Shown piece after piece: positions 5,552-52,144 of a stretch of DNA of 53,574 nucleotides. Under the pieces are notes generated by a model. The model did no database searches, was not told the DNA's origin, and worked only from the letters and a program-made list of their open reading frames with translations. The position numbers were made by a program, and so were the translations under genes. Position 1 is the stretch's first letter, and each line of letters begins with the position of its first letter. The stretch spans positions 1 through 53,574 of the forward strand of contig JAGOPQ010000002.1 of the NCBI GenBank assembly GCA_017991915.1, read 5' to 3'. The stretch comes from Minisyncoccota bacterium. GTDB lineage: Bacteria > Patescibacteriota > Minisyncoccia > Phycocordibacterales > UBA9973.

Positions 5552-6157
5552 ATGAATCCCATAGAGAAGCTTACTGAAATCTTTAAAGAATTCCCCGGTA
5601 TCGGAGAACGACAAGCCAAGCGGTTTGTGTACTTTTTGATGTTTCGGAATGGCACCTACGCCGAAAATCTGGCTAGGCTGGTACTCGAGCTTAAAAAAGA
5701 AGTGGCTCAATGTAAGGAGTGCTATAGATTTTTCATAATCAAAAATGGCAAAGCTTCCACTTGTGAAATTTGCTCAAATGTAAACGTAGACTCATCCGAA
5801 CTCATGATTGTAGAAAAAGACTCTGATCTAGAGAGTATTGAAAAGAGCCGAGTCTACCATGGTAAATATTTTATATTAGGTGGTTTGGTTCCAGTGGTAG
5901 AGAAAGACACCAAGAGTCGAGTGCGCATAGAAGAATTGAAAAATAAAATCAAAAAAGATAGTGGCGAATTAAAGGAAGTAATACTCGCCTTCTCGCTATC
6001 CCCACAAGGTGAACATACTGACCAATATGTGCGTGAACAACTGGCCGACATAACTGGAATCAAAATCTCTTCCCTCGGTCGCGGACTGTCTACTGGTACG
6101 GAGCTAGAGTATTCTGACAACGAGACTCTGCGCAATGCCTTAAAGAACAGACAATAA
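5552..6157 (+). CDS. recR: Recombination protein RecR
   Basis: The protein has an FPGIGERQAKR helix-hairpin-helix, a C4 zinc finger (CKECYRF...CEIC) and a Toprim-like C-terminal part. Confidence 0.93.
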   Translation: MNPIEKLTEIFKEFPGIGERQAKRFVYFLMFRNGTYAENLARLVLELKKEVAQCKECYRFFIIKNGKASTCEICSNVNVDSSELMIVEKDSDLESIEKSRVYHGKYFILGGLVPVVEKDTKSRVRIEELKNKIKKDSGELKEVILAFSLSPQGEHTDQYVREQLADITGIKISSLGRGLSTGTELEYSDNETLRNALKNRQ

Positions 6158-11021: not shown

Positions 11022-12104
11022 TTAGATTCCCTCCTTCTTGAGTTCTTCTATGAGCTCACGAGACTTGCGAGATATTTTAGTTGGAAGTTTTATATTGAGC
11101 TTGATCAAGATGTCTCCACGCTTGCTTCTGTCATGAGGTACACCCTTGCCTTTGACTCGCAAGATTTCATTTACTGTCACACCTTCTGGGATGCTGACTT
11201 CCATCTCACCATCTAGAGTTTCTATTTTGTATTTTGTGCCTAGGAGTGCATCGGAGAGTTTCAGGTTTAGGTTCATGACTAGATCATATCCATCACGTTT
11301 GAATACAGGGTGTGGAGCTACGTTTATTTTTATATACAAGTCTCCGGCAGTTCCTTTGAATACGGCTTCACCCATGCCAGTCATACGGATCATTTCACCG
11401 TCACGGATTCCAGCTGGAATAGCGATAGATATCTCTTCTTCGCGACGTAGCACGCCCTTGCCCTTACATTTATCGCAATGTTCTTTTGGCACTTCACCAG
11501 CACCGTGGCAGTCTTCGCAGACCTTGGTACTAGCGATGTTACCGAGTATGGTTCTCTTGGTTTCTCTGATTTGTCCTTGGCCGTTGCACTTTTTACAAGT
11601 TTCCATCTTGGTTCCGGATTTGGCGCCAGAGCCATGACAGGTCAAACATGAAGATGTTTTGGTAATTAAAATTTTTCTTTGTACTCCAAACACAGCATCA
11701 CTAAAAGATATTTGAATCTCAGTAGAGATGTCTCGGCCACGTCGAGGTTGATTTCCGCCCATACCACCGCCAAAGAAATCACTAAAAATGTCATTCAAAT
11801 TTCCAAAATCAAATTCTGCTCCACCGTTTTGAAATCCACTGAAGTCGAAACCACCAAAGCCTTGTCCGCCTTGGAATCCACCACCACCCATATTTTCAAA
11901 ACCAGCTCCGAACTGGTCGTATTTTGAACGCTTGCCGTCATCAGAAAGGACTTGGTAAGCCTCGTTTACCTCTTTAAATTTACCTTCGTCGCCCTCCTTC
12001 TTATCAGGATGGTATTTGTGCGCCAGCTTGTAAAAAGCCTTCTTTATCTCGTCTTTGGACGCGCCCTTATTTACACCCAGAATGTTGTAATAATCTTTAC
12101 TCAT
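11022..12104 (-). CDS. dnaJ: Molecular chaperone DnaJ
   Basis: The protein has a J-domain (YYNILGV...HPD), a G/F-rich linker and four CxxCxGxG zinc-finger repeats. Confidence 0.95.
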
Positions 12105-12111
12105 AACTACT

Positions 12112-13575
12112 TTATATCATAGGTTCAGCTTCCTGTGAAGATTCGTCTATTTGTGTGCGTGACTTGCCTTCGATGATGGCTTTCTCTTCTGAACTTCGGA
12201 TGATTGTGGCTTCTTCTTCAGCTATCAACTGTGCTGCAGATTCTTTTGGAATAGAATATTTTCTGCGAGAAGCGGCTATGATTTCATCTCTATATGATGG
12301 ATGTGGTGGTGGTAATACTCGCAAAGTTTCTGCAGAGAATGGATCATACGACTCTCCATCTATTGTCATCTTGATATAAAATTCTGTCACCGCGAGGTTT
12401 ATCATATCCTTCACATCAAACAGCGGAGCGAATTCAGGCTTCAATTTTACTGCGTCTTCACCGCCGACACGGAAAGTAATAACTGAACCTACGTTTCCAA
12501 GTACAGCTTGGTGAACCTTGGGTATGATTTGCCCGACGTATTGGTGAGCGATGGTGAGATTTAGCCCGTATTTGCGAGCTTCGGACAATATGTTTTCAAA
12601 AGTTTGAGTGACTACGTTTTGGAACTCGTCCACATAGATGTAGAAATCTTTGCGTTCTTTTTCTGGTATGGCCGCGCGCTCCATGCCGGCTTGTTTGATC
12701 TTGGTCAAGAATATAGAGCCGAGGAAAGAAGAGTTTTCTTCACCAAGGCGACCCTTGGATAGGTTGATGAGGATTATTTTCTCTTCGTTCATCAACTTGC
12801 TGATATCAATTTTGTTTTCTTTCTGTCCGAATATGTTGCGTAGAAGTGGATCAGACAGGAATTGACCGAGTTTGTTTACTAGCGGGATGATTGCGTCAGT
12901 ATCGAATTTTTCAGACCAGTCCGCGAATTCAATGGCGAAGAATCTTTTCACCATGTCATCTTTGATGTACTCCACCACTTTCTGTCTGTAATTTCTATCA
13001 GTCAACATAGAAATCATTCCGCGCATTGTGGCGTGAGGATAGTCTAATAGAGCCAGACAGGTAAATCGAAAAACGTGCTCTAGGCGAGGAGTCCAGTTCG
13101 CTCCGAATTGTTTTTGGAAAACTTCGATGAGTCCTTGGGTCAATTGAAACTTGAACATTGGATCCACGTTGGCTAGTGGATTGAATGAAGCTGGGAAATC
13201 AATATCGGAGGGCTCAATAATACAGACATCCTCAATGCGTTCTTTAGGAACATAGTCCAATATTGCATCCACTACGTCACCGTGTGGGTCTATCAAACAA
13301 AGTCCATGCCCATAGGTGATGTCTTGGCGGATAAAAAGTTCTAGGAGTTTGGTTTTACCCACTCCAGACTTTCCGATGATGTACATGTGGCGACGTCGGT
13401 CTACGCGCTTTACGCCAAAAATAAATTTCTTCTCTTCTAGGGAGGCCACATAGTTTGTACGTCCAATAAAAGAAACCTCTTCGGGTTTTACTTTGCCGAA
13501 AACTGGAAGCTCTGGTGGTGGCGGACCGTATTTAATTATTTGAACTCGATTTGGTTTAGGCATTTGATTTTGCAA
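12112..13575 (-). CDS. P-loop ATPase of the VirD4/TraG/TrwB - HerA(DUF87)-like class (T4SS coupling-protein-like), paralog 1
   Basis: The protein has Walker A ([10 protein letters not shown]), CLIDPHGD and Walker B ([10 protein letters not shown]), then [14 protein letters not shown]. It is strongly similar to the ORF at 15421-17514. Confidence 0.75.
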
Positions 13576-13579
13576 ATCA

Positions 13580-13606
13580 CGTCGCGTAAGTCCTATAGGC
13601 GCGACG
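13580..13606 (-). other. Intercistronic GC hairpin between the Cys-rich gene and ATPase paralog 1
   Basis: The stem is cgtcgcg / cgcgacg (7 bp, 13-nt loop). No U-tract follows on the minus strand, so this is a possible processing or attenuation site. Confidence 0.3.
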
Positions 13607-13629
13607 CTACTCTTATTTTACCATACTAT

Positions 13630-15414
13630 CTAGTACACTTCTTGCTGGTAACATTTTTCGCAATAAACTATATCCTGTTTTTCGGTTGGAAATCCTGTTT
13701 TAAATTCCTCTCCGCAGTGCGTATCTCCATGGAAATGATTTACTTCGTTTTTATATTCCCCACTATCGTCAGTAGACCCAGCGCACATACATTTTCTATC
13801 GTATAGATTTATACCGAGGCGTAGTTTTAGGCGCTCCATTGTGCGACAAGCTGGACATAACGTTGGTAATGGTACACCAATTTTTCTGTAAAAATTTAAT
13901 TCATTTGGAAGAATTCGAAATGCCTTGGTGCACCCCTGATTGCAATTCATCTTATGCGCACATTCAAAAACCTCTTTAGTAATAGTATCTTCTACCCTTG
14001 AAATATCGTTTGGTATGTCTTCGGCTTTTATTGTTGGTTGGTAGTCCTTGGATTCCATATCCTTCCAGCGGTAACCTTGGGCCAGTGCTTCTTCTTTGGT
14101 TAATGGAAAATATTCCTGAGCTATAGTTTCATTGTATGCCCATGGGCTAAATTCACCTGGAAAAAATTCTCCATATTTATAGATTTTCCCAGTTTTGTCT
14201 ACATAGGGCATGGCATTCATGTGCGCAATGATTTTTGGAACTAGTTCATTGTATTCCTCTTTGGAATATTGTTTATTGAGTATGCAATATTGTTTTTTCT
14301 TTAGCCCAATACATCCAAAAATATTTTCTGAACCCCTGCAGGTCATAGTGTATTCAGTGTTGTGAGAAGATTCTTGAGTAAACCATGCAAATTTTAAATT
14401 ATTTACACCAGATCCACAGGAAATAGATTCATATACAAGTTCTGCTGCGTCTCCCCAATTGGAATAATCATAACAATCTTTTGATCCAGGAGTTTCTTGT
14501 AAATACTGGCAGTATCTACAATTTTCACTTTCACGAACCAAAAAGGAATCTTGAACATTTTTGGAATTTGTGACATATGAACCAGTAGAGTTTTCGTTCT
14601 TTACACCTTGGTGGTTTTTATTTGGAAACTTATTCCAAAATTCTTGTGAATCTGCCAATCCCTTTTCAATACCTTCTCTGGTGTGGAGTTGGTAAGCCTT
14701 AACCTTTTCATCGTATTCTTCTTTTGTGCATTTTTGGTTGAAAAAATAGTGACTTTTGTTTCGTAAATTTACTGACCCGAAGCAATCTAGACATCCTTGG
14801 CAGTCACGACAAAACCACAAGTCGCTGGACTCCACACATTGAGAAGAAAAATGAGTACGGTAACACCCTGAGACCCAGAAACTTTGGTAGCAGGACTGTG
14901 ACTTAGATACATGTGATACATCTACACAATCTTGTGTGGCATTGACGCTATTGGAATACATGCAATCCTCTGCGCCAGTTGAACCAAAAGTTAGGTAACA
15001 GTTTTTTGGGTCTGTGGCGTTGTTTACATATGGGCTACCTACTCCACGGATGACATTTACAGACTTGAAAGGAACTTCCAACATTAACTCATACATTTGG
15101 GTCAGAAACGGTTGGGACCAATCAATTTCTTTACCATAATCCATCGCATCCCATACATCTGAAATCCAAATATCTCTATCGTAGACCTTTACTGGTGACT
15201 CAGGGGCATACATAGAAAAAATTTCTTTTCCAGAATAATCGCATTTCCTTTTATAGAGTCCTCTTTCATTACGAAATAGCCAGCGTCGTTGAGCACGACA
15301 CATTGGGCAGAAAGTCGGTGGTGGAACTTTTACTTTTTCGTAGAAATTAAAATCTTCCGAATCTATCGTAAAGTCTTTTTTGCAATTCTGACAGTTTCTG
15401 GTTTCAGTATTCAT
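13630..15414 (-). CDS. Cys-rich protein bracketed by two copies of one zinc-ribbon module, function unknown
   Basis: I count 33 Cys in 594 aa. The N-terminal module is CQNCKKDFTIDSEDFNFYEKVKVPPPTFCPMCRAQRR..LYKRKC. The C-terminal module is CNQGCTKAFRILPNELNFYRKIGVPLPTLCPACRTMER..LYDRKC. The centre holds Cys spaced about 9-14 residues apart. Confidence 0.7.
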   Translation of the reverse strand: MNTETRNCQNCKKDFTIDSEDFNFYEKVKVPPPTFCPMCRAQRRWLFRNERGLYKRKCDYSGKEIFSMYAPESPVKVYDRDIWISDVWDAMDYGKEIDWSQPFLTQMYELMLEVPFKSVNVIRGVGSPYVNNATDPKNCYLTFGSTGAEDCMYSNSVNATQDCVDVSHVSKSQSCYQSFWVSGCYRTHFSSQCVESSDLWFCRDCQGCLDCFGSVNLRNKSHYFFNQKCTKEEYDEKVKAYQLHTREGIEKGLADSQEFWNKFPNKNHQGVKNENSTGSYVTNSKNVQDSFLVRESENCRYCQYLQETPGSKDCYDYSNWGDAAELVYESISCGSGVNNLKFAWFTQESSHNTEYTMTCRGSENIFGCIGLKKKQYCILNKQYSKEEYNELVPKIIAHMNAMPYVDKTGKIYKYGEFFPGEFSPWAYNETIAQEYFPLTKEEALAQGYRWKDMESKDYQPTIKAEDIPNDISRVEDTITKEVFECAHKMNCNQGCTKAFRILPNELNFYRKIGVPLPTLCPACRTMERLKLRLGINLYDRKCMCAGSTDDSGEYKNEVNHFHGDTHCGEEFKTGFPTEKQDIVYCEKCYQQEVY

Positions 15415-15420
15415 ATAAAT

Positions 15421-17514
15421 TTATTCTAATATTTTTCTTAATACATCTTCGGGTACTTCACGGATTTTCTTTGGTGCGCTTTCAGTAGAAGGAGCCGGTG
15501 TTGGGGTTTCAATTTTTGGTTGCGGAGTTGGTGCTGGTTTGGGTGCAGGTGGAGGAGTTGGGATCGGTGTAGCAATCGGAGCAGTTTTCGCTATCAGATC
15601 CTTTAGCTTGTTCATTTCTTCTGGCGTTGCAGCTCTGTCTTTTGTATTAGCAATCACCTCTTTTGGTTTATCCTTTAGAATATTTATTGATACGGGTGGT
15701 GGTGTAGGCTTGGCCACAGGGGTGACTTCTGCTACCTTGTCTCCACTCATTGTTTTATTTAGGATTTCTTTTAAAGCTGGATTTTCGTTTCTAGATTTGG
15801 GTTTGTCATGTGAAAAAACTTTCTTGATTCCAGAAAGAATTCCATCTTTTCTCTTTGGCTCTGAATTATTATTTTTAGCTGAGTGAGCATTCGCGCGTTC
15901 GGGATGTCTCTCACCAGTTTTTTCTTCTTCAACGTTTTCGGATTTGAATTCTATACCCAAGTCCGCAAGTGGTTTGTAGAATTTTGCATCATCTCTTTTG
16001 CTTGGCTGGTTTAGTTCTTTGCTATTGTTTACTTTTATTTCTCCAGATTTTATTTTTGCTACGCATTCTTTGCAGTATACTGATCGGCCCGGTTCTGGCT
16101 TGAATGGTACTGTCTTCTCTAGTCCACAAGCTGAACATATGATAGGGAACTTCCCTACTTCTCCACCGCTTCCTCCGCCTGATGGTGCGAAATCTCCGAG
16201 TGACATTCCACTCCAATCATTTATTTCTTTCTCCACTGCTTCTCTGGGTTTACAATAAAGCTCACGGGAAGATGCGATAACTCCATCTTCTACAGACTGG
16301 TCATTCTTCTTTGCCATCGGTGGCAGTGTGCGTGCAGAAAACGGACGTGAGGTGACGCCGTCTATCATTAGCTTCAAATATATTTTGTAGTTTGGCAGGT
16401 TCACTATGTCACTCGGGGTGAACTCTGGATCAAATTCTTTTTCCAAGAAATCTGCATCATCAGAACCCACTCGGAAAACTATCATCGTACCCACGTTGCC
16501 GAAGACAGCGTCACGCACAGCAGAGCTCTTGTCAGAGATAAGCTGGGCGGTGTATTGGTGCGCCACAGTCAGGTTTAAGCGGTATTTACGAGCTTCGGAC
16601 AAAATACCGGCAAAGGCGTCGGTGACGAAGTTTTGGAATTCGTCCACGTATAGGTAGAAGTCTTTACGTTCATCTTCAGGGATACGCACGCGCTCCATGG
16701 CCGCGAGCTGGATCTTGGTGATAATCATACCTCCCAAGAGTGCAGAATTGTCCTCACCTATTCTTCCTTTGGACACATTCACTAGGAAAACTTTTCCTTC
16801 GTTCATGATGTCAAAAATATTTATTGTACTTTGTTGTTGGCCGACTACGTTGCGGATGATAGAAGTAGACAAGAATTGACCGACTTTATTTTGAATCGGA
16901 GCGATGGCTTCATTTCTAAATTTTTCTTGCCATGCCTCGTACTCGTGCACCCAAAAAGCCTTGATGACTGGATCTTTCAAGTTGTTTATGATTTTCTGTC
17001 GGTAATCTTTGTCTACTAGCATTCTAGGAATGCCGAGGAGTGTGGTGCCCGGAGTGTCTAGGAGCGCCAGAATACAATTGTTCAAAATGTATTCCATTCT
17101 GGCAGACCAAGCGTTTGCCCAAATCTTGGTGAATATTCCCATGAGTCCAGAGGCTACGAGGTGTTTGTATTTTGGATCAATCAATTCTAGAACGTTGAAG
17201 CCGATGTGGTAGTCCGTATCTGCTGGGTTGAAATATATGACATCCTTCACGCGATGAAGTGGAATAGCGGAGAGAACTTCTTCTACGAGCTCGCCGTGTG
17301 GATCTACCACGCAGACACCCTCACCATTTCGGATGTTCTGGATGATCATGTTGAACATGAGCACAGATTTACCTGTTCCAGATTTTCCGAGGATGTAGAC
17401 ATGCTGACGGCGGTCTTTGCGCTTGATACCAAAAAGAGTGTTCTTGTCTCTAAAAGTAGAGAGCCCAAGATACGTGATATCTCTGTTCATTGGTATTTCG
17501 GGAACGTCAGCCAT
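15421..17514 (-). CDS. VirD4/TraG/HerA-like P-loop ATPase, paralog 2, with a C-terminal zinc ribbon and Pro-rich tail
   Basis: The protein has Walker A (ILGKSGTGKS), CVVDPHGE and Walker B (FYLYVDEFQN). About 250 extra residues follow, containing CSACGLEKTVPFKPEPGRSVYCKEC and PIATPIPTPPPAPKPAPTPQPKIETPTPAP. Confidence 0.75.
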   Translation of the reverse strand: MADVPEIPMNRDITYLGLSTFRDKNTLFGIKRKDRRQHVYILGKSGTGKSVLMFNMIIQNIRNGEGVCVVDPHGELVEEVLSAIPLHRVKDVIYFNPADTDYHIGFNVLELIDPKYKHLVASGLMGIFTKIWANAWSARMEYILNNCILALLDTPGTTLLGIPRMLVDKDYRQKIINNLKDPVIKAFWVHEYEAWQEKFRNEAIAPIQNKVGQFLSTSIIRNVVGQQQSTINIFDIMNEGKVFLVNVSKGRIGEDNSALLGGMIITKIQLAAMERVRIPEDERKDFYLYVDEFQNFVTDAFAGILSEARKYRLNLTVAHQYTAQLISDKSSAVRDAVFGNVGTMIVFRVGSDDADFLEKEFDPEFTPSDIVNLPNYKIYLKLMIDGVTSRPFSARTLPPMAKKNDQSVEDGVIASSRELYCKPREAVEKEINDWSGMSLGDFAPSGGGSGGEVGKFPIICSACGLEKTVPFKPEPGRSVYCKECVAKIKSGEIKVNNSKELNQPSKRDDAKFYKPLADLGIEFKSENVEEEKTGERHPERANAHSAKNNNSEPKRKDGILSGIKKVFSHDKPKSRNENPALKEILNKTMSGDKVAEVTPVAKPTPPPVSINILKDKPKEVIANTKDRAATPEEMNKLKDLIAKTAPIATPIPTPPPAPKPAPTPQPKIETPTPAPSTESAPKKIREVPEDVLRKILE

Positions 17515-17592: not shown

Positions 17593-17628
17593 TCTTTCAA
17601 GCGGTTGATGACGCGGATATTCTTTTTT

Positions 17629-17668
17629 CGCACGAACGGAGTCCGGCAACTTTAACCCCGTTCGTATG
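17629..17668 (-). other. Strong hairpin in the 3' UTR of island gene 2
   Basis: The stem is gcaCGAACGG / CCGTTCGtatgc (8 bp plus 2 bp) with an 18-nt loop, starting 12 nt after the stop codon. Confidence 0.4.
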
Positions 17669-17679
17669 CAGTCACTGCG

Positions 17680-17973
17680 CTAGACCATGGGTCGGAGTAG
17701 TGACCAGTGGATCTTGCGGATCTCTCCTTCCCACCCGTGTGGTTCGAGGCCGTCCTCCTTGTTCCACGGTCTGCGGAGTGGTTCGCCGTTGTGCAGGAGG
17801 GTGACAGCAAAATCTCCCCCCGTAAATGCCTCCTTCGAGAGTACAACAAAGTACCCCCTGCCGTAGGTGTCTACGAGATCTTGGTGAATCCCCTTGAGGT
17901 TCCATGGAACAAGCTCAGCGGGGACGAAAGTCACGGGCATCCATTCTTCTGGGTCGAGCTTTCGTTGCGACAT
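17680..17973 (-). CDS. Orphan 98-aa protein on GC-rich island 2, family not recognised
   Basis: The ATG at 17973 is preceded by AGGGAGA, 6 nt upstream. The protein MSQRKLDPEEWMPVTFVPAELVPWNLKG... is Trp-rich and not low-complexity. G/C dominates third codon positions. Confidence 0.55.
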   Translation of the reverse strand: MSQRKLDPEEWMPVTFVPAELVPWNLKGIHQDLVDTYGRGYFVVLSKEAFTGGDFAVTLLHNGEPLRRPWNKEDGLEPHGWEGEIRKIHWSLLRPMV

Positions 17974-18017
17974 CGCGAATCTCCCTGGAGGTGGTGGAAC
18001 TATGTGGCTCTGTTTGT

Positions 18018-18045
18018 ACTTTACAACATTATTTTTAATAAGCAA
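18018..18045 (-). promoter_or_regulatory. Candidate promoter TTGCTT-16-TAAAGT for island gene 2
   Basis: The minus strand reads TTGCTTattaaaaataatgttgTAAAGT. The predicted leader is about 38 nt. Confidence 0.35.
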
Positions 18046-18607: not shown

Positions 18608-20305
18608 TTATTTAAAATACTCGGGTGTATTTAGAGACATCCAATCAAGGAGTCCACGCATAACCGACGAAGCACTAACAGTACCAGTACTTGGGCCAGA
18701 TTCCATCATTACAGTAAAAGCATACTTCGGATTTTCGTATGGAAAAAATCCAACAATCCAAGAGTTAACTCTATTTTTTAAGGCACCCAATTGGGCTGTA
18801 CCGGACTTAGCGGCAACCTCGACATAAGGCACATTTAACGCCACAGCAGTGCCGTAACTAACTGCTTGTCGCATTCCCTCGTGCACAACATCATAATATT
18901 CCTTGGGGATGTCTTTTGATAAGTTTCTTTTTTCAGTTTCAGTACCAAGAATAAAATGCGGAGTTAATAGTGTGCCGTTATTTGCAAGTCCTGCTACGGC
19001 ACGATTTATCTCCATTGGTGTAACTTGAAATCCATACTGCCCTATCGAAGTGTTAAATGTATCTCCGAGCCTCCATGGATCGCCTTTAAAATTTTTCAAC
19101 TTCCAGTCTGGATTCGGAATAACTCCATTTTTTTCATCGGGTAGATCTACTCCAGTCTCCTCCCCCATACCAAATAGCTTTGAATATTCTTCAATTTTCA
19201 AAACACCAAGTCCTTTTTGGTCTTCAAATCCTCCTCCGATAGAATAAAAATAAACGTCGCTAGATACTGCAATAGCCTGCTTCATATCTGTCCAACCGTG
19301 AGCCTTCCAGTCTTTAAAAATGCTTGGTTTATCTGGAAAATATGGATTCGGAATCGAGATTGAACCAGTAGATAATATTTTTTTGTTGGGGTCAATAATT
19401 CCCTCCACAAGAGCACCCAACGCAACAAATGGCTTTACAATAGACCCTGGAGTATATAGGCCAGAAATAGTTCTATCGAGAAGAACCTTCCTCTTATCCG
19501 AGAAGTAGCCGTTAATAACGCTTCGATCTTTTCCTTGAGATAAAACCTGGGAATCATATTCAGGATAGCTCGTGGAAACCAAAACTTCACCTGTGTTCAC
19601 GTCCATTATCACCCCGGCTCCACCGGTAAATGAAAAATTCTCAGAAGCACTCTTGATTAAGTTGAAAAGCTCACCTTGAATTCTAGCATCCATCGTGGTA
19701 ACTAGATCGTCTCCTCGCACTGGAGCATTGACTATGTTTTCTGAATGAGTTTTCTTTAGCGCATCTGTTTCCACTATCTTTGAACCATTCGTTCCAGTCA
19801 TTTTATCATTGTATTGTTTTTCCAACCCGTCCTTACCTATAAACTCACTTTGCCAAAAATTACCCACTTTATCTTGAGCTGGATAACTAACATAGCCGAG
19901 TACGTGCGAAAATCCCGGTGTTTTGTAAACACGCGTCGGGAATACTTCTGCCCCTTCTCCTTCTTTTGTATTCCAAGCAAGCTCTATTTTATTTCTATCA
20001 TAAATAATACCTCGATCAGCAAAAATTATTTGCTTTTCTAAAACATTATTTTCACTTCTTTGCAGATAAGCCTCACCTTTGGAAATTTGCAACCAACCGA
20101 GACGAACCCCAAACAACACCGTCAAAATCATAAAAAAAGAACCGAGTATAAATACAGTTTGTTTGGAAATTGGTTTTTCGATGCGTCCCTCAAATTGCTG
20201 ACGATCAAAATTTTGCAAATTCTTTGAATCAAGAAAAATCTCGTCTGGTTCTACAAAGAAATTGGCGTTTTTTATTTTATTTTTTCTTAATAAACGTCTA
20301 ATCAT
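18608..20305 (-). CDS. Penicillin-binding protein 2 / FtsI-class transpeptidase
   Basis: The protein has an N-terminal TM anchor, a PBP dimerisation region, and the transpeptidase motifs STxK-like (GSIVKP), SxN-like and KSGTA. Confidence 0.88.
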   Translation of the reverse strand: MIRRLLRKNKIKNANFFVEPDEIFLDSKNLQNFDRQQFEGRIEKPISKQTVFILGSFFMILTVLFGVRLGWLQISKGEAYLQRSENNVLEKQIIFADRGIIYDRNKIELAWNTKEGEGAEVFPTRVYKTPGFSHVLGYVSYPAQDKVGNFWQSEFIGKDGLEKQYNDKMTGTNGSKIVETDALKKTHSENIVNAPVRGDDLVTTMDARIQGELFNLIKSASENFSFTGGAGVIMDVNTGEVLVSTSYPEYDSQVLSQGKDRSVINGYFSDKRKVLLDRTISGLYTPGSIVKPFVALGALVEGIIDPNKKILSTGSISIPNPYFPDKPSIFKDWKAHGWTDMKQAIAVSSDVYFYSIGGGFEDQKGLGVLKIEEYSKLFGMGEETGVDLPDEKNGVIPNPDWKLKNFKGDPWRLGDTFNTSIGQYGFQVTPMEINRAVAGLANNGTLLTPHFILGTETEKRNLSKDIPKEYYDVVHEGMRQAVSYGTAVALNVPYVEVAAKSGTAQLGALKNRVNSWIVGFFPYENPKYAFTVMMESGPSTGTVSASSVMRGLLDWMSLNTPEYFK

Positions 20306-27178: not shown

Positions 27179-28585
27179 CTAGTTTGGGTAATTTACAATT
27201 ATTTTAATATCTTTGTTTTTTGTTGGAAGTGAGGTTTTCCAAAATGGACGAATCACGAGCTGAGCAGAGTCGATATTTTGATAAGATGACAAGATTGTAT
27301 TAAAGCTTTTTTTGGGTTGACCCACGATATCTGAAATGAGCTTCTCTTCATCAATTTTCCAAACAACTCTCAAATTACCAGACAACGTAAATGCAATACT
27401 TTGTGATAAAGAAGTTAGACTATCTTTGCTAACCAAAGACAAGGTTAAGTCACGGATGTTCTTCAAGTAAATCTTACTAGCGTCTTCGTTGGGTAAGATT
27501 TTTTCAGCAATTTTAGCCGTAAGTTTCTTTTCATCAAACAAGAATCCAGAAAACGTTCCGGACAAGCTGGCCACGGCAGTATTGTTTGAACTAGGAGTCA
27601 ATTTTAGCTCATCATTGTTTGTATTAAAGAGTGCCCCATCTTTGAAAAGCACAAAACCACTAGGAATTTGCTCTTCGGCTTTAGCCAACAACTTACTTTG
27701 CAGTACGGGCTTGAGTTTGGCTATGATGCGAGCCTTGTCTGAATCAGACACATCACTGGATTTTCCCTTAAAACCACCAGTAAGGTCACCCTTGCTGCGG
27801 GCATAAAATTTAGCGTATTTAGGTGTACCCTTGAAACCAAAAATTTTAAAATCTAAGGCGGTACTATTGTACTCAGCACCTGCTTCAGATGCATATATAC
27901 CGACTTCAATGGATCCTGGGGTAGTTCCCTTCATTCCTGGTACAGTAGTTTTGGTGGTGGTTTTGTATAGCTTGCCATTTGAACCCTCTAGTCTGGTATC
28001 TATGGACAAAGATTGGGGGCTGGTACTAAATGCATTGTATAGAACTACTTTACCTGTAGCCTTCACAGCCACATCCTTTTCTTCACCAGCAGTTACCGTC
28101 TCGTGTTCTTCTCCAGATATGACCACAACATCAAAAGGCAATCCACCTTGGTCACTGTCTTTCATGGCGGACAAATCCAAGTTTACATTTTGATCTTTGA
28201 TTTTTGGACTAACGGTTATTTTTGCACTAGAGAATAAAAACGAAAGTGCGAAAATAAGAAAAAGTGCGGACACTCCGGCCACCATCCACAAAGCAAACCT
28301 AGACTTATCGGGATCCTTGTATCCACCCACATCATTAATAGAAGCAAACCGACTCTCAAAACCAGAGTATTTTGGTCTCTCTAAAATTGTTTTTTCTGGG
28401 GTTTTTATTATTTTCGGTGCTTCTTCTGGTTCTTTGGCTTTTTCTACTACAGGGGGTGGAGTATAAACTGGCTCAACAACTTTTTTGGGAAGAGATATTT
28501 TGATTGGAATTTTTACTGCCTCAGGCACCTTGGGTGCGCCCACTGATTGCCTCTTCACCATGTCTTGAAGTAGATTTTTAGCCAT
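27179..28585 (-). CDS. Bitopic membrane protein with a large extracytoplasmic domain, unknown function
   Basis: The protein has a cytoplasmic N-terminus of about 95 aa (MAKNLLQDM..., Pro/Lys-rich), one TM helix (FALWMVAGVSALFLIFALSFLF) and about 350 aa outside. It follows the actin-like ATPase gene after a 9-nt gap. Confidence 0.55.
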   Translation of the reverse strand: MAKNLLQDMVKRQSVGAPKVPEAVKIPIKISLPKKVVEPVYTPPPVVEKAKEPEEAPKIIKTPEKTILERPKYSGFESRFASINDVGGYKDPDKSRFALWMVAGVSALFLIFALSFLFSSAKITVSPKIKDQNVNLDLSAMKDSDQGGLPFDVVVISGEEHETVTAGEEKDVAVKATGKVVLYNAFSTSPQSLSIDTRLEGSNGKLYKTTTKTTVPGMKGTTPGSIEVGIYASEAGAEYNSTALDFKIFGFKGTPKYAKFYARSKGDLTGGFKGKSSDVSDSDKARIIAKLKPVLQSKLLAKAEEQIPSGFVLFKDGALFNTNNDELKLTPSSNNTAVASLSGTFSGFLFDEKKLTAKIAEKILPNEDASKIYLKNIRDLTLSLVSKDSLTSLSQSIAFTLSGNLRVVWKIDEEKLISDIVGQPKKSFNTILSSYQNIDSAQLVIRPFWKTSLPTKNKDIKIIVNYPN

Positions 28586-34559: not shown

Positions 34560-35864
34560 TTATGTTGGCAGGTTTGTTGGCGGCGAAGCTTCTTTGGATT
34601 CAATACGTTCAAGTGTAGGTACTTTCAATATCTGTCCTGGGAAGTGCCAGAGAGTGGCTAGCTCTTCGGTATTCATCACAAAAGTATGCGGATGCTTATA
34701 TCCTGGAAAGATAAACGGTGATATCGGCCAAAAAAGAGGAATTCCGTCCGACAAAAGCGTGTGCCTCATTGGTAAGTGGAAGAAAGAACGCTCCCGGTAC
34801 TCGGTCAACATTCTGTCAGTTATTTTCAAAACCACATCAGGGGGTGTAGAGAAAATTCCACCATAAGCATCACCCTGAGTAGAGTTAATACGCTTTAGTC
34901 CATTCACGTCAGGCGCAGCATATTGGCGAAAAATCAAACGTAAATTTCTTCGGCTGTTTAGATCATACACTTCTTTTTTGGCTATATACATGGCTCGTAT
35001 ACCGGTATCAAAACCAACCTTGGTAACCTTGGTAGTCATTTTTTCAAGGGCTCGCTTTAGGAAATCTGGCGGACGTATTTCCACTCTGGCATCTGTACCC
35101 AACTCTACACCCTTACCCTTTATGGCTGTATAATCTTTCAACATATTAAACATTTCGTGTTTGGATTCTTCCACCCAATCATGCCTGCGGAACCAGTGTC
35201 CAGCAGTACGAAAAGTTTTCTTGGAAGGAGTCACCACAATCTGCACCCACATTTGTTCTCCTTTTTTAAGAGAAGCAAAAAGCTCTACCACTGGAGAAAT
35301 CGGATCAACTTTAAATTCTTCCTTTGGATCTTTGTCAAGTCCGAAATCCACATAAGTTTTGATTGGGAAAGCTTCATGTTTTTCTAAAGCAAATTCACAA
35401 CCCCAACCCATCCAAGAACTTGTCGGAGAAATTTCATCTATGGCTAAAGTATAGTCCTCTACTTCTTTGACTTGAGCTTGTGGATACTGGGCGTACATTT
35501 GAGTTTCGATAAGACCTTTGACACGTGAGGGTGTGCGGATGAAGAAATGCACTTGCCCATCTATAGATGCAATTTCTAAAGAAAACCAAAACCACACAGC
35601 ACCCTGCCAGAGTTCTTCTTTTCCTCCCTTCACACTAAAGTGGTACAGGGCATTGGTTATAAAAAGCTCCATGGCTTTCGGTGAACGCAAAACCTCACGC
35701 GGAGGAACTACTTCTAAAACCACGAATTCAATACCGGATATGAAATCTTGGCGAACATAATGAATCCAAAATTTAAAAGTTATGAACGCCAAAAGCACCG
35801 TTCCGGCAAAAGGCAAAAGAGCTAGTAAAACTTTGTAAATAAAGATAAGAATTGGCTCAATCAT
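34560..35864 (-). CDS. N-terminally anchored protein of unknown function. From memory only, similar proteins usually sit beside the VirD4/HerA-like ATPases in CPR genomes.
   Basis: The protein has two N-terminal TM helices, then VVLEVVPPREVLRSPKAMELFITNALYH, and ends TEELATLWHFPG. The family link is unverified recollection. Confidence 0.5.
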   Translation of the reverse strand: MIEPILIFIYKVLLALLPFAGTVLLAFITFKFWIHYVRQDFISGIEFVVLEVVPPREVLRSPKAMELFITNALYHFSVKGGKEELWQGAVWFWFSLEIASIDGQVHFFIRTPSRVKGLIETQMYAQYPQAQVKEVEDYTLAIDEISPTSSWMGWGCEFALEKHEAFPIKTYVDFGLDKDPKEEFKVDPISPVVELFASLKKGEQMWVQIVVTPSKKTFRTAGHWFRRHDWVEESKHEMFNMLKDYTAIKGKGVELGTDARVEIRPPDFLKRALEKMTTKVTKVGFDTGIRAMYIAKKEVYDLNSRRNLRLIFRQYAAPDVNGLKRINSTQGDAYGGIFSTPPDVVLKITDRMLTEYRERSFFHLPMRHTLLSDGIPLFWPISPFIFPGYKHPHTFVMNTEELATLWHFPGQILKVPTLERIESKEASPPTNLPT

Positions 35865-35935: not shown

Positions 35936-36967
35936 TTAAGATGCAGGAGTATACAGGCCAGACTTGTTTTTCTTGAAGTACTTAGGATTTACAAGGTTAA
36001 CTAAAATTGTATTTTTCTTGAAATATCTTTCTTTCATTACTTTTTCTACTATATCGTCTTTGGTCATTGGTCCTTCTCGCTTTAAGATGTCGCGAATTAC
36101 TTCACGAGCAATTCCAGCTTTATAACCCCATTCTGCCAAAGCATACATACCACGTCCAACCAAGATAAATCTTGAGTCTTTAATGAGTTCATTGTGGCAA
36201 GTAGCATAGTGAGTCTTGCGTCCGAAAGTTTTAGAAATAGAATCAGCAACTTCTCGGAAGTGCATTGGTGAGCCATGACGTCGCATCACGAGGAAAGCAT
36301 AATCCTTTACTCCACGAGTTCGGATATTTGGTGAACTAGCCTTACCCCATTCACCAAGAGGATTCTTGGAAATAGTTTTAGACATAGCCAACCATCGCTT
36401 AGCGATTTCTTCGTTCTTGTAATGATCAGAAACATCTTTCAACTGATCGAAGAATTTCTTTATCATCTCACTCTCAGGCACTAGGTCTTCATCAGACAGA
36501 CTTGAGTAGAGTTTCTTTAGGGATTCGTGAACCTTTACAGCAGTTTCATCGTCCACACTCCAGCGAGTATGAAAATGGTTGTCCTCTCGGTGCTTTTTAA
36601 ATGCATCACCCAACTCTAAATAAAAGTTGATGTGGTTTTGAGTAGCTTGATCTTTGGAAATATGATGCAAAAATTCATGTTCAGAAATAATGCCACCAAG
36701 AGAAATTATCAATTGTTTGATTTCTTCAAAAACTGCTTGCTCTTTTTTATAAGCATCAGATTTTTTTATAGAATTTAAAGCCGTATCCTCTATTTGTCGG
36801 ACACGCTCTCTGGTGATGTTGTATTTTTTACCAATTTCCTCAAGAGTTTTTCGTGCAGAGTCTGGAGTTAGTCCGAATCTGCTCATAATCACGTCACTAG
36901 CGCGATCTTGGAGATGAGAGGTTATTCTTTTTGTTACTTGTTTTGGTTTGAAAGTTATTTTAGACAT
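35936..36967 (-). CDS. DNA-binding protein: sigma-70 region-4-like HTH (N-terminus) plus HARE-HTH-like winged helix (C-terminus)
   Basis: The N-terminus carries RFGL...RKTLEEIGKKYNITRERVRQIEDTAL. The C-terminus carries MHFREVADSISK...IKDSRFILVGRGMYALAEWGY. No sigma region 2 is present. Confidence 0.65.
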   Translation of the reverse strand: MSKITFKPKQVTKRITSHLQDRASDVIMSRFGLTPDSARKTLEEIGKKYNITRERVRQIEDTALNSIKKSDAYKKEQAVFEEIKQLIISLGGIISEHEFLHHISKDQATQNHINFYLELGDAFKKHREDNHFHTRWSVDDETAVKVHESLKKLYSSLSDEDLVPESEMIKKFFDQLKDVSDHYKNEEIAKRWLAMSKTISKNPLGEWGKASSPNIRTRGVKDYAFLVMRRHGSPMHFREVADSISKTFGRKTHYATCHNELIKDSRFILVGRGMYALAEWGYKAGIAREVIRDILKREGPMTKDDIVEKVMKERYFKKNTILVNLVNPKYFKKNKSGLYTPAS

Positions 36968-50035: not shown

Positions 50036-50371
50036 TTATCTTGGAGGGTAAGTGGGATTATAACCATCCAACTCCACTTTTCCAGTTTCCGGCGTTATTC
50101 CATCAACCTTTAGAGTATTTAGAATCAAATTCATGATTGCGAACACTCCCATCATAATAGTAAGACCAATAATTCCCCAAACCATGTGCATCTTGCCAGT
50201 AGTTTTTGCTTCTTCATTGTCCCCATTCGAAATGAATTGGAAAACTCCATACAAGAAGTAAACCAACGCTAGGGCGAAAAGCAAAGTGATGATTGGATTT
50301 ACAATGAGTTTATTTATCTTCATTATAAACGAATCAAGATTTCCACTCGCAGCATACGCAATGTTTATCAT
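50036..50371 (-). CDS. Small two-TM TrbC/VirB2-like pilin-family protein (paralog 5, no signal peptide)
   Basis: The module is PIITLLFALALVYFLYGVFQFISNGDNEEAKTTGKMHMVWGIIGLTIMMGVFAIMNLI. An in-frame stop lies two codons upstream of the ATG. Confidence 0.6.
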   Translation of the reverse strand: MINIAYAASGNLDSFIMKINKLIVNPIITLLFALALVYFLYGVFQFISNGDNEEAKTTGKMHMVWGIIGLTIMMGVFAIMNLILNTLKVDGITPETGKVELDGYNPTYPPR

Positions 50372-50400
50372 AACTTACTATTGATACTTACTGCTTTAGA

Positions 50401-50793
50401 TTAATAAGGAACTGTTGGGAAATTGATGTTTGTGGTGTTGTTTAGTCCGAAAGTGTTAGTAACTATTCTAACAAGACCCCACATACCTACGATAACCACC
50501 AAGCCGATGATTCCGTAAATCATTCGGTTTCTTCCAGTAGTCTTCGCCTCTTCATCACTAGCGATAACGAATTGAACTACTCCAAACACGAAGTAAAGTA
50601 CTCCGAGGGCGATTAGAAATGGAAGGATTGCTCCCAAGATTTCATTGAACTTACAAATCAAACTCTGGATAGTTGTGATAGAACCACCAGTACATTGTGT
50701 AGGATTTTGACCAGTAACTTGGGCAAACGCCACCAATGGGGCATATCCTAGAACAAGACCTGACAATACGATTAATTTATTTTTCATAATCAT
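50401..50793 (-). CDS. Small two-TM TrbC/VirB2-like pilin-family protein (paralog 4)
   Basis: The signal peptide ends AFAQV. A Cys pair follows, then ILPFLIALGVLYFVFGVVQFVIASDEEAKTTGRNRMIYGIIGLVVIVGMWGLVRIV. Confidence 0.62.
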   Translation of the reverse strand: MIMKNKLIVLSGLVLGYAPLVAFAQVTGQNPTQCTGGSITTIQSLICKFNEILGAILPFLIALGVLYFVFGVVQFVIASDEEAKTTGRNRMIYGIIGLVVIVGMWGLVRIVTNTFGLNNTTNINFPTVPY

Positions 50794-50825
50794 TTTTTAC
50801 TAATAATAACTTATTGCGACCCCCA

Positions 50826-50853
50826 CCCGACTGAGTGACTTCAGTCATTCGGG
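50826..50853 (-). other. GC-rich hairpin in the predicted 83-nt leader of paralog 4
   Basis: The minus strand reads CCCGAatgaCTGAAgtcaCTCAGTCGGG, followed by tgggggtcgc. Confidence 0.3.
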
Positions 50854-50882
50854 CAGGTTTTAATAATTAATAATGTCTATAT

Positions 50883-50891
50883 ATTGTAGCA
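50883..50891 (-). promoter_or_regulatory. Extended -10 box (TGcTACAAT) inside the pilin-like array
   Basis: The minus strand reads gtgTGcTACAATatatag, about 25 nt downstream of the paralog 3 stop. Confidence 0.45.
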
Positions 50892-50915
50892 CACAACTTG
50901 CAAGTCGTCTGTGAA

Positions 50916-51752
50916 TTACTGACTTTTTAGCTGTGGAATGGCATATTCAATACCAAAGGTGGTTCCGACAATTTTAACCAATCCCCACACAGAAACCATC
51001 ACAACTAAGGCGATAATTCCCCACAACATAAACTGTCTACCCTTTTCTTTCTTTGCCTCTTCGTCACTATTTATTACGTATTGAACAACACCCCAGATAA
51101 ACATAGCCAAGGCTAGCGCAAATATAAGTGGAATGACAGATTTACTGATAATACAAATCACGTAATTAATCAAACTTTGCAAATTGGAATTCTTAACCAA
51201 ACTACACAATCCCCCGCTTGAGGCTTGTACGATACCACTACTCAAATTACTGATGTCTGGAGCTTGATTGGCAATACCAAAAGTATTTACAACAATAGCA
51301 ACGAGACCCCACATACCGAAAATCACGACTAGTCCAATAAGACCAAAAATAATTCGGTTTCTGCCTTCCTTTTTGGCTTCATCTCCCCCACCTATCATGT
51401 ACTGCACCACACCCCAAACAAAGTAGACCACCCCAAGTGCGACAAGCAGTGGAATCAAGGCATTCAAGATGGAACCGAGCTTACACAACAAATCTCCAAA
51501 GTCGTTTACGTTTGTAGCACAGACTCTACCAGAAGAACCTTGGTTGCTGGAAAAAATAGTTGATCCACTACCACCTCCAAAGGTTCCGTTGCTGTAGCAA
51601 CCAGTCGAAGTTTCCCACGTATCTGGTTCATCTGGATCACAGGGTAAGCCGAGTGCGTTTTGAGCGTTGGAAAAATTTGGTAAAATAGTAAAAACTAAAA
51701 CTAAAACAAGTAAGAATGCTTGAGCTATTTTAAATTTATTGAAGTTTTTCAT
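50916..51752 (-). CDS. Tandem-duplicated (double-module) TrbC/VirB2-like protein (paralog 3)
   Basis: Two complete modules lie in one ORF. The first is LIPLLVALGVVYFVWGVVQYMIGGGDEAKKEGRNRIIFGLIGLVVIFGMWGLVAIV. The second is VIPLIFALALAMFIWGVVQYVINSDEEAKKEKGRQFMLWGIIALVVMVSVWGLVKIV. Confidence 0.62.
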   Translation of the reverse strand: MKNFNKFKIAQAFLLVLVLVFTILPNFSNAQNALGLPCDPDEPDTWETSTGCYSNGTFGGGSGSTIFSSNQGSSGRVCATNVNDFGDLLCKLGSILNALIPLLVALGVVYFVWGVVQYMIGGGDEAKKEGRNRIIFGLIGLVVIFGMWGLVAIVVNTFGIANQAPDISNLSSGIVQASSGGLCSLVKNSNLQSLINYVICIISKSVIPLIFALALAMFIWGVVQYVINSDEEAKKEKGRQFMLWGIIALVVMVSVWGLVKIVGTTFGIEYAIPQLKSQ

Positions 51753-51759
51753 ATTTTTA

Positions 51760-52131: not shown

Positions 52132-52144
52132 ATTGTATAACATA

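Follow-up and report, generated by a model that had tools for sequence, protein, structure and literature searches.

In this work we describe a type IV coupling protein (T4CP) of monoderm or actinobacterial type that is split between separate genes in a 53,574-nt stretch of the genome of a Minisyncoccota bacterium (contig JAGOPQ010000002.1; this whole stretch is referred to below as the window, and all coordinates follow its numbering). One half is a membrane protein of the DUF8128 family (MEM) and the other a pair of paralogous soluble ATPases (ATP1 and ATP2) encoded 20 kb away, where their genes flank that of a cysteine-rich protein (CYS) and are followed by dnaJ. Four lines of evidence lead to this assignment, namely the adjacency of MEM and ATPase genes in other genomes, fusions between them, homology to a full-length T4CP, and a predicted fold. 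We propose, with about even confidence, that the split T4CP is a motor with CYS proteins as its clients or adaptors. The features on which the argument turns are the following:

ATP1: positions 15421-17514, minus strand; 697 aa, by sequence a soluble T4CP-type (VirD4/TraD-like) P-loop ATPase.
Zinc-ribbon domain of ATP1 (aa 456-487): positions 16054-16149, minus strand; CxxC-x17-CxxC treble clef, Pfam zf_Tbcl_2.
CYS: positions 13630-15414, minus strand; 594 aa with 33 Cys, cytoplasmic.
ATP2: positions 12112-13575, minus strand; 487 aa from a TTG start, predicted soluble T4CP-type ATPase and paralog of ATP1.
dnaJ: positions 11022-12104, minus strand; 360 aa, canonical type I DnaJ.
MEM: positions 34560-35864, minus strand; 434 aa, DUF8128 by precomputed annotation, one N-terminal transmembrane helix and a large soluble domain.
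Sigma-70 region 4/HARE-HTH protein: positions 35936-36967, minus strand; Pfam Sigma70_r4 and HARE-HTH, a conserved upstream neighbour of MEM.

ATP1 and ATP2 share 45% identity across 439 aa (E 4e-137), and their pairwise alignment bears out an initial annotation of the window, which had taken them for clear paralogs sharing a set of motifs: Walker A (GKSGTGKS in ATP1, GKSGVGKT in ATP2), a DPHG block (DPHGE and DPHGD, respectively), Walker B (FYLYVDEFQN in ATP1) and a SEARKY block (SEARKYRLNLTVAHQY in ATP1), the latter two being present in ATP2 as well. Above the Pfam gathering cutoffs both proteins match TrwB_AAD_bind (44.5 bits for ATP1 and 28.4 for ATP2; cutoff 20.5), T4SS-DNA_transf (31 and 25; cutoff 20.1), TraG-D_C (25.4 and 22.1; cutoff 22) and DUF87, and TrwB is their sole PDB sequence match. 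Their best NCBIfam matches are TraD and VirD4-like models, at 52-55 bits against cutoffs of 250-650, and membership of a named T4CP equivalog in NCBIfam (TraD, VirD4-like CD1115 etc.) is not reached.

When annotated collections are searched beyond Patescibacteria, the best matches to ATP2 prove to be plasmid-encoded. On an actinobacterial conjugative plasmid of Embleya sp. (NZ_CP108778), an 812-aa "conjugative DNA transfer family protein" (WP_331738717) combines a transmembrane segment, DUF8128 and an ATPase domain in a single T4CP, within a monoderm-type type IV secretion system (T4SS) cluster that also encodes PrgI, a VirB4-like ATPase, a replication-relaxation (relaxase-like) protein and NlpC/P60. 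The ATPase domains of the window align with that of the Embleya protein over ~400 aa at 30-32% identity (E 1e-59 to 1e-68), the same Pfam models match, and Walker A and B and TraG-D_C are present. ATP1 (32% identical) matches the T4CP with an E of 2e-68 and the VirB4-like ATPase encoded beside it with an E of 2e-6, and for ATP2 the two values are 7e-59 and 0.012. Because the T4CP score far exceeds the VirB4-like score, we place both ATPases with the T4CPs rather than with VirB4, FtsK or classical HerA; to judge from their sequences, they are VirD4/TraD-type coupling-protein ATPase domains with intact Walker A and B motifs. Of the label "VirD4/HerA-like" first given to them, the VirD4/T4CP part thus stands, but the HerA-like part is too loose.

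The models of the other families agree with this placement of the ATPases: the VirB4 model TIGR00929 reaches 11-15 bits on the two proteins (E 0.064 and 0.006), its cutoff being 643, FtsK/SpoIIIE (PF01580) gives no match at E <= 0.1, and on the HerA side only the generic DUF87 passes, with weak HerA matches in PADLOC and no NurA gene nearby. What the proteins share with the HerA/FtsK superfamily and with the archaeal Ced system is the P-loop superfamily, the DUF87 match and weak NCBIfam matches to the CedD/CedB DNA-import ATPases; unlike those systems, they have no NurA partner and no FtsK_SpoIIIE match, and their HerA and Ced equivalog scores lie far below the cutoffs. Neither ATP1 nor ATP2 has a transmembrane or hydrophobic segment, so the anchor that a T4CP carries in the same polypeptide is absent from both. 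In ATP1 the ATPase domain (~aa 1-440) is followed by the zinc ribbon, which passes both PF23477 (43.6 bits; cutoff 27) and TIGR04272 (45.5 bits; cutoff 36), and then by a Pro/Lys-rich low-complexity tail that is probably disordered. Zinc binding by this CxxC-x17-CxxC domain type has been shown experimentally for small proteins of Methanosarcina (PMC12704099).

Soluble ATP1-like ATPases were also seen on IMG/VR contigs called viral (L165-L170, some of them 58-60% GC), and an orphan one on the alphaproteobacterial Sulfitobacter plasmid NZ_CP081110 (L083), with 37-53% identity across this set and no MEM detected beside any of them. From these contigs and this plasmid, members of the ATPase family therefore also travel on mobile elements beyond Patescibacteria.

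The membrane half is MEM, which has one transmembrane segment (aa 1-34) and ~2,400 homologs, all "hypothetical" and all from Patescibacteria. PF26449 is precomputed for the MEM of the window and for 118 of the 119 other listed homologs; a local Pfam scan returned no match, the model being either absent or sub-threshold. On an 888-kb contig (L001), orthologs of ATP2 (77% identity) and ATP1 (66%) flank five tandem CYS paralogs, and upstream of this cluster lie a gene for a 191-aa protein with two transmembrane segments (M191) and a 531-aa gene, directly 5' of the ATP2 ortholog, whose product is homologous to the MEM of the window (E 3e-42). No M191 was found in the window itself. More generally, MEM homologs are encoded immediately 5' of the ATPases at many loci, and MEM adjoins an ATPase gene in 17 of 19 long single-ATPase loci and in the loci of distant clades with what we term layout B, in which the order is SecD, SecF, sigma-r4/HARE-HTH, MEM, M191, then ATP2 and/or ATP1, interleaved with CYS arrays. 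At two loci (L061 and L069) the two halves are joined in 790-801-aa fusions of a transmembrane helix, a MEM-like domain and the ATPase. A 932-aa ORF at L028 also has a long N-terminal extension, which gave no match to the MEM of the window or of L001.

A profile of diverse MEM sequences aligned with the stretch of the Embleya T4CP that immediately precedes its ATPase domain, residues 140-400 (hhalign probability 89.6%, E 1.9e-6, 246 columns; the target was the N-terminal 425 aa of the T4CP), and this alignment takes in the conserved EELAxLxHxP...PP..LP motif at the end of MEM; an earlier hhalign run with a shallow MEM alignment had recovered the C-terminal motif only (E 0.054). The MEM profile had no match among PDB sequences. 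With the AlphaFold2 (AF2) model of MEM as query (predicted local distance difference test score, pLDDT, 74.9), every one of the top eight PDB fold matches is a TrwK/VirB4 chain of R388 (E 2.6e-4 to 5e-3, probability up to 0.99), and five of the eight pass E 0.001; matches ranking below these eight are weaker and fall on unrelated ferredoxin-like folds. Because the TM-scores are low and the aligned ranges are not visible, we infer rather than observe that the fold is VirB4 N-terminal-domain-like; such a fold would accord with VirB4 and VirD4 sharing an ancestor and with how abundant detached, VirB4-N-terminal-like TrsD proteins are in the phylum. On the combined evidence, MEM is the detached N-terminal half of a T4CP, and the ancestral N-terminal half of the ATPases is a transmembrane helix plus a DUF8128 domain. 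The initial annotation had suggested that an orphan membrane protein at 34.6-35.9 kb belongs to the same apparatus as the ATPases and that the parts of this apparatus are scattered in the window; adjacency, fusion and the hhalign result support the former suggestion, and the parts do lie scattered.

Compared with its Embleya counterpart, the system described here differs in several respects: a membrane/DUF8128 gene and separate genes for soluble ATPases take the place of a single gene; there are two ATPases, ATP1 and ATP2, by duplication, ATP1 having gained a zinc ribbon and a long, probably disordered tail; the genes occupy a chromosomal housekeeping site with no adjacent relaxase or VirB4 gene; and they are accompanied by the CYS family, of which there is no member in the plasmid collection. 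To VirB4/TrwK the likeness lies in MEM, whose model has TrwK/VirB4 chains as its only significant fold matches, and in the layout of the MEM-ATPase fusions, a membrane-associated N-terminal domain followed by a RecA-like ATPase; unlike in VirB4, the ATPase domains are T4CP-like, the NCBIfam VirB4 models are marginal and MEM has no PDB sequence match. TrsD, a stand-alone VirB4-N-terminal-like protein abundant in Patescibacteria (PMC12102498), shows that detached proteins of this kind exist in the phylum, but trsD genes lie mostly beside virB4, whereas MEM lies beside a HARE-HTH gene and a T4CP-like ATPase gene.

In the window, the order of four same-strand genes with gaps of 6, 54 and 7 nt, and the 33 cysteines of CYS, are as first annotated, the gaps being confirmed by the ORF list. 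Since ortholog alignments begin at residue 5 of ATP2, its true start is probably the ATG at 13563, which would make the CYS-ATP2 gap 66 nt rather than the 54 nt obtained with the TTG start. The order ATP1-CYS(n)-ATP2-DnaJ recurs in at least 10 species-representative genomes and in several metagenome contigs. In the near clade the layout (layout A) is PaaX on the opposite strand to DnaK, then ATP1, one to three CYS genes, ATP2, DnaJ, a 199-aa membrane protein, an arginase-like protein and an oppositely oriented CysRS gene. The "sandwich" of a CYS gene between two ATPase genes that had been remarked on thus recurs beyond chance, but not as a fixed triplet, with zero to three CYS genes between the ATPases. 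The linkage is kept in other gene orders, namely ATP1-CYS-ATP2, MEM-M191-ATP2-CYS(n)-ATP1 and CYS(11)-ATP1, and same-strand ATPase-CYS neighbours have a median spacing of 39 nt (n = 54).

To remove anchoring bias, 80 metagenome loci were fetched by an ATPase anchor and counts were made on those of at least 12 kb. CYS was present in 14 of 18 ATP2-type loci (mean 2 copies) and in 0 of 19 loci with a single ATP1-like ATPase (Fisher p 5e-7), and M191 in 7 of 18 and 0 of 19, respectively. The single-ATPase loci typically have the order SecA...SecD-SecF-HARE-MEM-ATPase-MnmA, with the HARE-HTH gene upstream of MEM in 15 of the 19 long ones as well as in the layout B loci. From the makeup of these loci, the core and widespread module is therefore HARE-HTH, MEM and one T4CP-like ATPase, and the ATP2 duplicate, M191 and the CYS arrays are therefore a derived elaboration travelling together. 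That these three travel together through several rearrangements argues against chance adjacency. The origin or expansion of the CYS family went along with the ATP2 duplicate, to which the family remains coupled in the genome.

The sigma-70 region 4/HARE-HTH protein, with the former domain at its N-terminus and the latter central, is encoded next to the DUF8128 gene, as its best-conserved upstream neighbour, on many contigs (L116-L164), usually after secD-secF. Its NCBIfam matches, to the RpoD C-terminus and to an RNA polymerase delta-like model, are both below cutoff, and it is possibly a DNA-binding partner or regulator.

The dnaJ product is a type I DnaJ (TIGR02349, 401.6 bits, cutoff 377.2; Pfam DnaJ, DnaJ_CXXCXGXG and DnaJ_C), with a J domain carrying HPD, a G/F region, four CxxCxGxG motifs and the C-terminal domain. 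An Hsp70/DnaK family gene lies upstream of ATP1 in layout A and was found in 18 CYS-anchored loci, many near-clade loci have the order dnaK-ATP1-CYS(0-3)-ATP2-dnaJ, and dnaJ adjoins ATP2 because the near-clade cassette is inserted between dnaK and dnaJ. In distant clades the cluster follows secDF and the HARE-HTH gene with no dnaJ beside the cassette; at L078 a distant DnaJ-like gene (40% identity) lies upstream of secDF. No dnaK was found in the window by tblastn. The window retains the downstream synteny of DnaJ, the 199-aa membrane protein, the arginase family protein and CysRS, and it also retains HARE-MEM (35936-34560) followed by YceG, an RNase T-like exonuclease and MnmA, which appears to be the ancestral position that the ATPases left. 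We therefore regard dnaJ, whose adjacency may reflect co-expression with chaperones, as a clade-specific neighbour and not as a core or defining part of the module. The initial annotation had seen in it a hint of chaperone-assisted assembly or delivery; the adjacency holds, but as the linkage is limited to one clade, chaperone-assisted delivery is a weak hint.

The CYS family itself is large and confined in its distribution. Its close homologs number more than 7,800; those that carry a name are "hypothetical" (apart from one JGI "Zn ribbon nucleic-acid-binding protein"), and wherever an organism is given it belongs to Patescibacteria. When 1.84 billion representatives were searched with a profile, 4,625 clusters at 50% identity emerged, almost all of 550-600 aa, and phage, plasmid and IMG/VR collections gave no matches, on which ground a mobile or viral origin of CYS was rejected. 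In the window protein the domains are arranged as follows:

CYS domains: basic zinc ribbon, aa 6-62; repeats, aa ~128-258 and 278-398; alpha/beta domain; ribbon, aa 489-546; ribbon, aa 560-594.

Internal duplications account for two of these pairs, the N-terminal ribbon corresponding to aa 489-546 (z 20.8) and the two cysteine-ladder, solenoid-like repeats to each other (z 12.3). The C-terminus (H560, H562, C567, C585, C588) resembles the zf_Tbcl_2 ribbon of ATP1 (z 4.7; PF23477 E 0.018). No above-threshold match to CYS was obtained in Pfam, NCBIfam, PADLOC or PDB sequences. PF13451 scored 15.2 bits on the whole protein and 19.7 bits on a fragment (five fragments were scanned; cutoff 24), and PF23477 15.1 bits (cutoff 27), so that the resemblance to zf_Tbcl/zf_Tbcl_2 is sub-threshold and limited to the termini; a few CYS orthologs carry precomputed zf_Tbcl-type matches. 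These modules (TIGR04272), which the ATP1 domain matches above cutoff, are small and generic, cover ~25% of CYS and are uninformative on its 400-aa core. The AF2 model (pLDDT 73.5; predicted TM-score, pTM, 0.73) has solenoid-like rungs with a 12-residue period. A known fold was sought and rejected, as the best Foldseek match in the PDB had an E of 1.1 (left-handed beta-helix enzymes) and BFVD returned only zinc-ribbon modules. At aa 202-211 (14781-14810), the end of the first repeat, lies a conserved CxxCxxCxxC (CRDCQGCLDC) that is absent from the second repeat and could bind an Fe-S cluster rather than zinc.

CYS genes form tandem arrays of 1-11 copies per 20-kb locus in 80 species-representative genomes. 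In the single-cell genome AH-259-L05 (contig JALLOO010000001.1; L072/L080), ~17-18 CYS genes run uninterrupted for ~30 kb and end at an ATP1 ortholog, a very large investment for a genome of such size class. Paralogs within a locus are a median 40% identical, against a median 60% for the best match in another locus, and from this contrast we take the paralogs to be ancient and individually conserved, neither recent nor fast-evolving.

Several further observations concern the surroundings of CYS genes. In a Nomurabacteria metagenome-assembled genome (JAPLXO010000010.1; L002, 3017-9779 and 13808-15469), the normally invariant ribosomal S10 operon is disrupted: rplB and rpsS are separated by an insertion of three CYS paralogs together with a GIY-YIG endonuclease gene, NUDIX and CutA1, and a 553-aa protein without assignment lies between rplE and rpsN, which hints at high expression or mobility of CYS genes. 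A gene for CutA1, a divalent-ion tolerance protein, recurs beside ATP2/CYS in distant clades (L051, L057, L058, L063, L066 and L002) and also at L105 (9631-9936) and six other metagenome loci, and this recurrence may link the zinc- and cysteine-rich family to metal handling. On L001, a PemK-family toxin gene (5677-6120) lies on the opposite strand between the ATP2 ortholog and the CYS array.

We return to the proposal that the split T4CP motor has CYS proteins as clients or adaptors. In this scheme, ATP1 and ATP2 would form hexameric rings, possibly mixed, that would dock on the membrane via MEM and, where present, M191. The rings would engage CYS in an ATP-driven manner through its conserved terminal zinc-ribbon modules, one of which ATP1 also carries, and CYS would be either cargo for a T4SS or an adaptor presenting other cargo, protein or nucleic acid, to the motor. 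By analogy, the gene order speaks for such a role, since in conjugative systems relaxase and accessory genes adjoin coupling-protein genes. A conceptual parallel is offered by the Legionella coupling ATPase DotL, which works with DotM, DotN, IcmS, IcmW and LvgA, DotN being a Cys/Zn protein: there too a coupling ATPase acts with cytoplasmic adaptors, and DotL is among the weak PDB matches of a fused paralog. Unlike the Dot/Icm adaptors, to which they have no detectable homology, CYS proteins are far larger and amplified to many paralogs.

A number of points weigh against this proposal. The tie between the ATPases and CYS is genomic only. In approximately half of the loci fetched by a CYS anchor, no ATPase was seen within 10 kb, many CYS copies are remote from any ATPase, and in one layout A contig (L087) the interval between ATP1 and ATP2 holds no CYS gene. 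Folded proteins with multiple zincs would be awkward T4SS cargo, and CYS orthologs, which evolve about as slowly as DnaJ and are uniform in length, are unlike typical secreted effectors. The VirB4-like fold of MEM comes from a medium-confidence model, with TM-scores of ~0.3 and aligned ranges that are not visible. An association with a T4SS is not seen locally, as the 53.6-kb window contains no VirB4-sized ATPase (no scan was aimed specifically at VirB6 or relaxase), and across the phylum virB4 lies near only 148 of 5,713 T4CP homologs (PMC12102498). The T4CP homolog of S. epibionticum is dispensable for epibiotic growth (PMC12102498). Finally, the housekeeping neighbourhood (SecA, SecDF, MnmA, dnaK, dnaJ) is equally compatible with a function outside T4SS.

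The alternative that we consider unlikely, though the least so, is that MEM/ATP1/ATP2 is a nucleic-acid translocation motor, pumping DNA or RNA (import of host nucleic acid, or export) in the manner of T4CPs, Ced and ComB-type systems, with CYS and the HARE-HTH protein as nucleic-acid-binding or processing partners rather than cargo. By family, T4CPs are DNA-dependent translocases, and the CedD/CedB matches, weak as they are, point the same way; moreover, the most conserved neighbour of MEM is a sigma-r4/HARE-HTH DNA-binding protein, and the zinc-ribbon class of ATP1 is annotated as nucleic-acid-binding by one source. The zf_Tbcl-type ribbons of CYS are basic (pI, isoelectric point, 9.1 and 9.5), but the remainder is acidic, leaving the whole protein mildly acidic (family median pI 6.4), and Pfam and NCBIfam scans detected no relaxase, nuclease or helicase domain in it. 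It also speaks for such a motor that nucleotide synthesis is lacking in Patescibacteria and that host RNA enters a cultivated member by a mechanism described as unresolved (bioRxiv 10.64898/2026.06.21.733656). Such a motor leaves the need for 5-18 CYS paralogs unexplained, as it does the single-ATPase lineages with no CYS nearby.

Rather unlikely, in our estimation, is a housekeeping machine of the envelope or of proteostasis, in which a T4CP-like ATPase has been exapted for protein or membrane quality control or for FtsK-like segregation, and CYS proteins are zinc- or redox-dependent holdase-like or metal-handling factors expressed with chaperones. Hsp33 and DnaJ are Cys/Zn proteins that act as chaperones. 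The Cys/Zn protein Ruc likewise acts as a chaperone (PMC7448276). In the near clade the ATPases (87-90% identity between orthologs for ATP1, 83-92% for ATP2) are more conserved than DnaJ (67-82%, and 72-82% among the CYS-anchored layout A loci); the core module sits in the SecA...SecD-SecF-HARE-MEM-ATP-MnmA synteny, the cassette of one clade lies inside a dnaK-dnaJ operon, and CutA1 recurs beside ATP2 and CYS. The published survey, which counted 5,713 VirD4-like homologs in 2,918 Patescibacteria genomes, describes their role as "possibly exapted" (PMC12102498). Conserved gene order in reduced genomes is, however, weak evidence of function, the closest homologs outside the phylum are carried by elements that are conjugative or mobile, chaperone and protease domains are not detectable, and eighteen paralogs would be excessive for a holdase.

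We judge it improbable that there is no functional link at all, with CYS a proliferating and possibly selfish or mobile family that lies near ATPase genes by chance or regional synteny. The many CYS loci with no nearby ATPase, the variation from zero to three in the copies between ATPases, and the insertion of three CYS genes with a GIY-YIG gene between rplB and rpsS at L002 would fit such a family. They are countered by the contrast of 14/18 and 0/19 loci (p 5e-7), by an adjacency kept through several gene orders and clades, by paralogs that are ancient and under purifying selection, and by the lack of any transposase or integrase seen at the locus and the absence of the family from phages, plasmids and IMG/VR. 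An anti-phage or conflict system, in which a HerA/FtsK-type ATPase works with diversified sensor proteins, is very improbable and was rejected as the principal interpretation: a diversified, multi-copy partner family, the PemK toxin gene inside the L001 cluster and weak PADLOC matches of the ATPases to mad8 (E 1.7e-14) and HerA models speak for it, but CYS and MEM have no PADLOC match, no nuclease or other effector domain was found, and ATPases 83-92% identical among near-clade orthologs in a fixed housekeeping position are unlike defence islands.

Returning to the motor with CYS clients or adaptors, the window also holds candidate parts of a conduit, in the form of an array first noted at ~50-52.7 kb as VirB2-like pilins:

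Five VirB2-like T4SS pilin genes: positions 50036-52753, minus strand; PF18895 on four ORFs, the fifth assigned by clustering.

The match of four ORFs to T4SS_pilin (PF18895) confirms that reading, and the fifth (50036-50371) groups with one of these by clustering. Patescibacteria T4SSs have been described as having arrays of divergent VirB2-like pilins (PMC12857230), and the array here may serve the ATPases as their conduit, a functional link that would be plausible. It lies at the window edge, 33 kb from the ATPases, and any virB4 would lie outside the window. The initial statement that the window contains no VirB4 is consistent with our analysis, as every ORF of at least 500 aa is accounted for as something else, nine by Pfam scans and a 565-aa PBP2-like ORF (18608-20305) by reading the sequence only. 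A more ambitious extension, which we regard as distinctly unlikely, is that MEM/ATP1/ATP2 and CYS form the cytoplasmic engine of the Patescibacteria T4SS or pilus conduit, moving macromolecules between parasite and host. In one version it would import host RNA or DNA, with the zinc-ribbon CYS paralogs as substrate-specific nucleic-acid handlers; in another it would inject a repertoire of zinc proteins into the host.

The remainder of the window (~40.6% GC) has the housekeeping content typical of a reduced genome, including DnaB, CysRS, AlaRS, MnmA, IF-2, BipA, ClpB, PurD and tRNAs. Within and around the cluster two further features were considered:

GC hairpin in the CYS-ATP2 spacer: positions ~13580-13606, minus strand; read in the sequence and seen in the RNA fold.
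GC island upstream of ATP1: positions 17600-18010; 56% GC in a 40.6%-GC genome.

The hairpin had been described with a 7-bp stem; it exists, but the stem is 8 bp (GCGUCGCG/CGCGACGU). It has no U-tract and folds no better than shuffled sequence (z -0.6), for which reasons it is unconvincing as a terminator and a terminator or attenuator role was rejected. Promoter and terminator scans over the locus gave results at chance level only. Upstream of ATP1 lie the GC island, a pilin-like gene on the other strand, the PBP2-like gene and purD. The island occupies the position of dnaK in relatives and carries overlapping ORFs on both strands, e.g. 17680-18045 on the minus strand (121 aa), which has no match in Pfam, NCBIfam, or plasmid or phage collections; it could be a foreign insertion or remnant. 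A non-coding RNA in it was rejected, with no Rfam match at E <= 1, no tRNA or tmRNA and no excess RNA structure at 17.6-18.0 kb. Elsewhere, a 468-aa ORF without a Pfam match (27179-28585) lies beside an FtsA-like gene, both of them syntenic in relatives, and the two directly precede a series of small genes that we take, provisionally, for a ribosomal/rpoA operon.

Patescibacteria make up a very large share of bacterial diversity and are episymbionts with minimal genomes, and in their one genetically tractable member the T4SS is essential. The initial annotation knew of no function assigned to this gene combination, and the literature searchable to us agrees: no description was found of the split architecture with DUF8128, the HARE-HTH neighbour, the ATP2-CYS coupling or the dnaK/dnaJ insertion, and searches on DUF8128, on Cys-rich tandem families in the candidate phyla radiation (CPR) and on FtsK in CPR returned nothing relevant. 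The many VirD4-like homologs of the phylum, about two per genome, had been counted and left unexplained (PMC12102498); here these abundant homologs are shown as a conserved split coupling protein with a DUF8128 membrane partner. In Paceibacteria-type lineages, the duplicated ATPase is tied to a ~590-aa zinc/cysteine family that takes up to ~30 kb per genome.

Together, three "hypothetical" families (DUF8128, the T4CP-like ATPases and CYS) become one testable module, which supplies candidates for macromolecule exchange with hosts. If the housekeeping role were true, the module would represent an unusual exaptation of conjugation machinery into core cell biology. If it were instead the engine of a T4SS, CYS would constitute a protein family of new fold, acting in episymbiosis in a new way, and the module would provide a concrete gene set for the acquisition of host nucleic acids by nucleotide-auxotrophic bacteria.

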